In this document: positions 57,942 to 59,056 of the stretch, in pieces
Numbering within the stretch: the first letter of the stretch is position 1
Layout of the letters: every line of letters starts with the position of its first letter
Source of the DNA: Negaprion brevirostris
Lineage: Eukaryota
Length of the DNA: 64,000 nucleotides
NCBI GenBank assembly: GCA_030324005.1
Contig: JARDVH010000110.1
Location: 37,218,817-37,282,816, forward strand
Direction of reading: 5' to 3'
Translations under genes and position numbers: made by a program
Notes under the pieces: model-generated
Seen by the model: the letters and a program-made list of their open reading frames with translations, nothing else
The model's database searches: none
What the model was told of the DNA's origin: nothing

Positions 57942-58453
57942 ATGTGGACTGGAATGACAATCAATGATGATTAAAAAATGACAAGAATGAAGTTACTTAT
58001 TTTTCAGGACAAAATATTAAAGAAATTGAGGTGGCTGTGCTGGAACTAGTATAAATGACACCATGAGAATATAGTCTTAGATTTGGAAGGGAATGGGCTG
58101 ATAAACAGCATTAAAGTTAGCGGAATGGTCAGGAAAGAACTCTAAGCTATTTTGTTACTTTTATTCAAACAGCTGGAATGTAATTTGTGGCTAACCAGTC
58201 ATTAACTCCCTTTACAATATTCTATTTTAAGAGTGCTCCTTCAATTTTAGGAGTGTTAACTCACTGGAACACAACAATCTTCAAAGTAAAATATGATTCT
58301 AAACTAAATTTTCCAATCGTGGCTGTTGACTTTGCACTTAGATTGTAGCAAAACTAAAGATACCACATGAAACTGATCAACAACACTGAATGGAACAGAA
58401 TATGTGACTTAACCCAGTCAGTGCCTTTATAAAAATAGATATACATCGGACCC

Positions 58454-59056
58454 CTACAGTGCAGGAGAAGGCCATGCGGCCCACCAAGTCTGCACCAACT
58501 CTCTCTGACAGAGTACTTTACCTAGGCCCTTTCCTCCACATGATCCCCACAGCTCCATACATTTTCCATGGCTAATCCATCTAACTAATATACCTTGGGA
58601 CACTAAGGTACAACTTAGCATGGCCATTCCATCTAACCAGCACATCTCTGGACTATGAGAGGAATGACGTAGAGATGCCATCGTTGGACTGGGGTAAACA
58701 CAGTAAGAAGCCTCACAACACCAGGTTAAAGTCCAACCAGTTTGTTTGATAGTAAACCCACAAGCTTTCGGAAATGCTGTTCCTTCTTCAAGTTTTTCCG
58801 AAACTTTCCACACACCTGACGAAGGAACAGCATTTCCAAAAGNNNNNNNNNNGGTTTACTATTAAATAAACTGGTTGGACTCTAACCTGGTGTTGTGAGA
58901 CTTCTTACCCTGTGAGAGGAAACCAGGGCACCTGGAGGAAACCCACACAGACACCGGGTGAATATGCAAAACTCCACACAGGCAGTTACGCAAGGCTGGC
59001 ATTGAACCTAGGTCCCTGGTACTGTGAGGCAGCAATGCTAACCACTGTGCCACCCT
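58454..59056 (-). mobile_element. HE1/V-SINE interrupted by a Penelope-like insertion
   Basis: 3' half at 58454-58663 and 5' half at 58910-59056 join at gactgtgagaggaaacc. Confidence 0.92.
58664..58909. mobile_element. Penelope-like palindromic insertion with decayed hammerhead-ribozyme cores, ~11-bp TSD
   Basis: ~90-bp inverted arms (58703-58793 vs 58814-58908); CTGACGA-AGGAACAGCATTTCC-(G/A)AAAG core; TSD ctatgagagga/ctgtgagagga. Confidence 0.8.

Follow-up and report, generated by a model that had tools for sequence, protein, structure and literature searches.

The locus raises the question of whether a short hairpin with the remains of a hammerhead ribozyme on each strand is a mobile unit in its own right or a fragment of something larger. 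It lies in a stretch of 64,000 nucleotides from the shark Negaprion brevirostris (contig JARDVH010000110.1, positions 37,218,817 to 37,282,816 of the forward strand), called the window below, to which all coordinates refer. The original prediction took it for a separate non-coding, ribozyme-bearing derivative of a Penelope-like element (PLE) inserted into an older SINE.

The insert is 246 bp long (58664-58909), is composed of two inverted arms and is flanked by a target-site duplication (TSD) of about 11 bp, as expected: CTATGAGAGGA(A) at 58653 and CTGTGAGAGGA(A) at 58910 are identical in 11 of 12 letters. The left copy (58653-58663, plus strand) becomes 12 nt long when the element's first A, which both copies share, is counted with it, and the right copy (58910-58920, plus strand) is preceded by one extra C at 58909. 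The predicted inverted arms around a 20-nt gap are borne out by two blocks, each 90% complementary, one of 61 nt (58698-58758 with 58853-58913) and one of 29 nt (58765-58793 with 58814-58842, at a separation of 20 nt); left and right arm differ at 6 of 74 sites. The inversion of two similar arms thus stands, their symmetry does not, since a one-sided tail of 39 nt (58664-58702, minus strand) had been overlooked. This tail is without a mirror image and makes the insert lopsided. With the outer end of the element taken as position 1 (58664), the tail comprises positions 1-39, from the end of the 5' leader through the AT of the ORF start codon. The left arm (58703-58793) carries pLTR positions 40-130 with the element sense on the minus strand, and the tail-less right arm (58802-58908) carries pLTR positions 142-40 with the element sense on the plus strand, so that the inner ends are at positions 130 and 142. 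The distance of 20 nt between the arms was given correctly, while as a spacer it shrinks, because twelve of the bases (58802-58813) are element sequence and only eight (58794-58801, not assigned to a strand) are junction filler. Together with the next base the filler repeats the element's own TTTCCGAA and is therefore probably a templated insert of end joining. The 10 Ns reported for the right arm are at 58843-58852; this assembly gap probably represents 6 nt, as the left arm has 6 letters at the corresponding place. One contig of run X2, which may be a paralogue, is 4 letters shorter at the gap.

The host repeat was followed on the minus strand over 58561-59056, the part tested, and may begin further left. 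Its joined flanks match other SINE copies within the window and, in an 800-kb random sample, 108 uninterrupted copies spanning the empty site; insertion into an older, high-copy SINE is thereby confirmed. HE1 is the name given to this SINE by the original prediction and is used here provisionally. HE1 is listed as a V-SINE of sharks and rays in the available text of PMC4824008; a tRNA search of the SINE heads with ARAGORN was negative. In organism B, whose flanks show 23 differences over 473 bases, the left junction is spanned by a run X2 contig that departs from the window at 4 places, and the insertion is thus probably older than the split from that organism; in organisms C and D the flank contigs stop at 58662. 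At 58910-58914 the SINE's usual target sequence has ACTGTG in common with element positions 41-36, and the tail-less arm may have been primed by this match.

The arms lead to a coding element. A genome search with the left arm returned 1614 candidates, and the 30 loci retrieved have a common outer end and a different interior, in which the sequence folds back, stops or runs on. Run-on sequence reaches the end of an ORF with endonuclease motifs (L013), and an RT is present in L020. With the RT as query, 12 of 30 loci show the RT, the endonuclease region and the arm in collinear order; this answers the proposed genome-wide search for copies joined to an RT/GIY-YIG-type ORF, and its second part, for tandem arrays, gave one partial tandem (L240). 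A near-complete copy of the element is present in L291. Exact matches in which the tail passes into the ORF start were found at 62 places in the genome (0 for the control), and as positions 1-39 continue directly into it, position 1 falls inside the ATG. The RT was recognised by Pfam RVT_1 with an E-value of 2.4e-6 and 27.8 bits, under the Pfam cut-off of 29.6, and Pfam gave no family for the endonuclease region (the L013 piece and the C-terminal 370 amino acids); both points count against the overall explanation favoured below. The C-terminal 370 amino acids have Atlas neighbours at 0.96-0.97, with one cluster being GIY-YIG in 18% of its members, and the region is a putative endonuclease by its motif and these neighbours. 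The translations contain VVYLIRCRKGCPEAWYIGE and KPADKGG, the RT and C-terminal GIY-YIG-type region are contiguous with the pLTR, and the pLTR arrangement is accompanied by a one-sided tail of 30-40 nt and a TSD, which are the marks of EN+ PLEs in the available text of PMC8557442. Between RT and endonuclease is found CHSNLCKTC, a CX4CxxC linker. The same text describes a CX2-5CxxC motif at this place in Neptune, absent in Penelope and Poseidon and common to Nematis; by this linker motif the element is provisionally called Neptune type. The PLE origin that had been claimed is upheld in that the arm is the pLTR adjoining RT and GIY-YIG-type coding DNA. The insert is a single insertion of the ribozyme-bearing pLTR end of an abundant protein-coding PLE, putatively Neptune-type, and that it is a PLE stub we regard as practically certain. 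At L020:1501-2460 there is a two-part insertion whose inverted partner is an RT fragment, not pLTR, with an open frame of 225 codons.

An inverted truncated pLTR with a one-sided tail of 30-40 nt is a published PLE layout (PMC8557442, PMC3846280, as far as their available text goes). The closest likeness is to Pen2a_Av of Adineta vaga (PMC3846280), which has an inverted 5'-truncated pLTR and a tail at the ORF start; its one-end tail is 31 nt and its TSD 9-10, compared to 39 nt and 11-12 here. Unlike insertions of that type, the focal insert has no ORF body between the arms, is 246 bp in all and belongs to an estimated tens of thousands of stubs.

Abundance was estimated from a sample of 646,228 non-N bases, consisting of 80 evenly spaced 10-kb stretches of 7 large contigs, in which 38 sites were found, distributed over 30 stretches and including 20 head-to-head sites. 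If the sample is typical, the genome holds about 128,000 insertion sites (90,000-175,000), about half of which, some 67,000 (41,000-104,000), are head-to-head. So many two-armed sites would suit a non-coding, non-autonomous hairpin spreading as a unit, with its ribozymes relevant; in addition pLTR sequences are described as mobilisable in trans (PMC3846280) and PLE-derived retrozymes are known, including a report in one cartilaginous fish (preprint 10.64898/2026.07.22.740005), both taken from the available parts of these sources. For the focal copy this reading is nonetheless largely refuted, and we consider it very improbable. The 25-nt central junction is found at a single place in 2.69 Gb when as many as 2 mismatches are allowed, only the focal place among the best-scored 40 of the 1614 candidates matches all 137 query bases, and junctions vary from copy to copy. 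With the arms being the end of a coding element, the claim of a separate non-coding derivative falls. A MITE-like non-autonomous hairpin was rejected as an identity because the junction is found once in the genome and the centres are variable. The non-LTR retrozymes of the preprint, as its accessible text describes them, share with the insert the PLE origin, the non-coding nature and the type I hammerhead. They are built head-to-tail with two motifs on one strand, whereas the insert is head-to-head, single-copy and has mutated motifs on opposite strands; this identity too was rejected, as it requires head-to-tail repeats with the motif in two consecutive units.

Both hammerhead strings quoted in the original prediction are present exactly as given, and each motif has a different core mutation, as had been stated. 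The left one, a remnant of a minimal type I hammerhead (58759-58793, minus strand), has C3>U at 58791 and a change of N7, a tolerated position, at 58787; its stem I 5' strand is only 2 nt, the third base being missing, and its predicted cut is between 58762 and 58761. In the right minimal hammerhead (58813-58852, plus strand) stem I CAC (58813-58815) is followed by CUGACGA (58816-58822) and stem II (58824-58827 with 58834-58837), G12>A is found at 58838 and the cut site is under the Ns. Neither strand retains an intact catalytic core, and judged from these changes both focal hammerheads are likely dead. Being on opposite strands, the two motifs could not form a dimer with each other. Folding was done on N-free pieces of the insert; the plus strand up to the gap gave a predicted fold of -50.9 kcal/mol with the arms paired, and a read-through RNA is predicted to lock both motifs in a long duplex.

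For the family as a whole, 158 copies chosen at three or fewer deviations were compared, and the consensus that had been claimed, with a CUGANGA/GAAA/UH core and stems I and II, is present. Core bases are retained in 128-157 of the 158 copies and 43 copies are fully intact; core bases have been lost mainly through G8>A (27) and G12>A (28), which would fit CpG decay. Stem II pair 4 is A-U in 89 copies and G-C in 44, and pair 3 is A-U in 120, G-U in 20 and G-C in 9, counts which, as the copies share descent, reflect, like those for the core, a small number of events at the level of subfamilies. In the subfamily to which the window copy belongs, element positions 111-120 include an extra U in the stem II 3' strand (14 instead of 13 nt), which brings stem II down to 4 clean pairs. 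The suggested descriptor check gave a positive result: a strict minimal-hammerhead descriptor had 10 matches in the 646,228 non-N random bases and none in each of 5 shuffles, and 7 of the matches are from the focal element group. From these we estimate about 24,000 (9,000-48,000) intact motifs of the focal element group genome-wide, more than the 4,000 of coelacanth and 9,000 of Xenopus in the available text of PMC4209133, a rough comparison since descriptors differ. The intact minimal hammerheads at L152:7834, L203:1523 and L208:8160 (all plus strand) are from another repeat family, whose stem II is longer and to which the reference of the focal element gives no match. The Rfam covariance models, also suggested as a check, gave a negative result, as none of the 8 matches at E of 10 or below was to a hammerhead family. 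The best of these, the microRNA hairpin model MIR869 (57.5 bits against a cut-off of 330), was rejected as an identity, being a generic hairpin far below the cut-off. Elsewhere in the window, at 57959-58001, Rfam gives a weak match to SNORD27 (24.7 bits, E 0.84, with the cut-off at 52), which is probably due to chance. A consensus fold of 37 aligned arms contained two short helices only and no hammerhead stems.

In the main text of PMC4209133 metazoan PLE pLTRs are described as carrying pairs of minimal type I hammerheads on opposite strands, 100-700 bp apart. The motifs described here resemble these in the core, in the extra base after A9, in the G-C first pair of stem II, in the palindromic 15.2-16.2 and in the absence of a stable stem III. 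Their stem II of 4-5 bp and stem I of 3-4 bp are shorter than those of the Schistosoma motif, and unlike the motifs of that paper both focal copies are mutated. The same main text contains no shark hammerhead example; its supplements may hold some.

The best explanation overall, which we hold to be likely, is a one-off head-to-head insertion of a PLE end, probably dead and probably made from two separately primed reverse transcripts. The endonuclease would nick both target strands about 11 nt apart, and each nicked 3' end would prime on the RNA of the element, using one of two internal start sites, one per strand, the first in the start codon (position 1, corresponding by inference to the tail end at 58664) and the second 39 nt upstream (position 40, putatively at 58908). 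The cDNAs would reach lengths of 130 and 103 nt and stop at the 5' end of the RNA or close to it, immediately upstream of the hammerhead, and the two cDNA ends would be joined with the 8-nt filler, the hammerhead being carried along uncut in the template. Of the parts of this explanation, the two primings are rather probable, and for a run-off at the RNA 5' end the chances are about even. A precedent is the PLE Poseidon of Anolis carolinensis, for which the available text of PMC11167929 describes in vitro the nicking and extension of both strands from two internal RT starts that bound the tail and lie, as here, downstream of the hammerhead; insertion was unaffected by hammerhead mutants, so that cleavage was not needed. 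The Poseidon start sites fall some 111-118 nt into the ORF, those of the focal element in the start codon and 39 nt upstream of it; the focal element differs from Poseidon also in its Neptune-type CX4CxxC linker.

Among 125 records of arms with a tail, an inverted partner is present in 52, while 41 are single and 32 run into Ns; with so many copies running into assembly gaps, gaps probably often result from such hairpins. Eight of the 52 partnered records are 4 double-tailed insertions counted twice each (L008, L009, L133 and L198, with the tail on both arms); the flanks of L009 resemble inverted copies, not a direct duplication. The partner has its outer end at positions 35-40 in 39 of the 42 records in which the anchor was found (it was not found in 10), and duplications of 8-17 nt flank 22 of 33 pairs of a tailed and a tail-less arm, compared to 3 of 1056 mismatched pairs. 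A hairpin predicted at the two start sites does not exceed shuffled sequences in stability (z -0.7), and there is little covariation in it. Of 69 full-tail arms, 49 match at least one further base of the ORF start and 23 at least two, which may reflect either start sites spreading into the ORF or priming by short target matches.

The second arm could instead arise from the same element if cDNA or an antisense template folded back and primed itself, later central deletions giving unequal arms. This has been proposed for head-to-head PLE junctions with palindromes in the available text of PMC3846280. In 34 pairs the arms are equal in 14, as self-priming predicts, and several junctions recur on a short palindrome at 136-144, two observations that count against two primings. 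The arms also share variants, with 2.48 shared non-consensus letters in paired arms (48 pairs) against 0.41 in unpaired arms, so that both come from one source element or were homogenised later. In 10 of the 34 pairs the tail-less arm is the longer and holds sequence absent from the tailed arm (the tailed arm is longer in the other 10), which a fold-back does not provide; it also leaves the stop of the second arm at 35-40 unexplained, and the two tail-bounding start sites have been demonstrated in vitro (PMC11167929, available text). Unequal arms could still come from a later central deletion of a longer palindrome and shared letters from gene conversion, and on balance we regard the fold-back as unlikely.

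Where the arms end inside the element was mapped for 142 arms obtained with tail-only queries and from the random sample, 37 of them censored by Ns; the first 30 loci were excluded because their query forced long arms. Inner ends fall at 128-147 in 29 of 62 arms at risk, compared to 9.2 expected (P 2e-9), a zone 0-19 nt upstream of the hammerhead core in which the inner end of the focal right arm is also found. Some of the ends placed at 106-108 and at 130-131 are artefacts, the subfamilies concerned being absent from the reference set. The clustering beside the motif, and two loci (L023, L098) which within the ambiguity of shared letters are readable as starting at the cut site, would suit a ribozyme that sets arm length, by cleavage of the template or by stalling of the RT at the folded hammerhead. 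We consider this improbable: at the predicted cut site (96-101) there is 1 inner end among 90 arms where 4.2 are expected, and most of the clustered ends are past the whole core, so that the RT had already read through the hammerhead. The preferred reading, a run-off of the cDNAs at the 5' end of the RNA, requires a transcript start nearby. A TATA-like motif at 165-159 points to a start at about 135 and an initiator-like motif at 146-141 to one at 144, both compatible with an RNA start in the pile-up zone whose position they do not fix, and promoters internal to the pLTR are known (PMC2377424, PMC3846280 and PMC6765202, available text). In L115 the sequence past element position 144 consists of a 22-nt hammerhead-adjacent piece in at least three head-to-tail repeats up to a gap, which suggests repeated template slippage.

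In L1 twin priming both target strands prime and an inverted 5' part and a TSD result, the two parts coming from different stretches of the RNA. The focal arms differ in that both copy the same RNA stretch from fixed start sites. Every component of the structure is already known, while the origin of tandem and inverted PLE structures is called undefined in the available text of PMC8557442, and a literature search of partial coverage, restricted to texts without supplements, found no paper on shark PLE hairpins or PLE twin priming. The focal copy itself is inert scrap and the class is of modest value, but the end statistics make the two-priming model directly testable in the existing in vitro system. 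It is a tentative proposal, to which we give somewhat less than an even chance, that the stubs are a genomic fossil record of PLE insertion by double priming at two fixed RNA sites, in which about half of the cDNAs reaching that far run off at the transcript start upstream of an uncleaved hammerhead. If true, they would demonstrate in vivo the use of uncut RNA as the template, and strong-stop-like hairpins would be the product of priming within the 5' leader, about 67,000 per genome.
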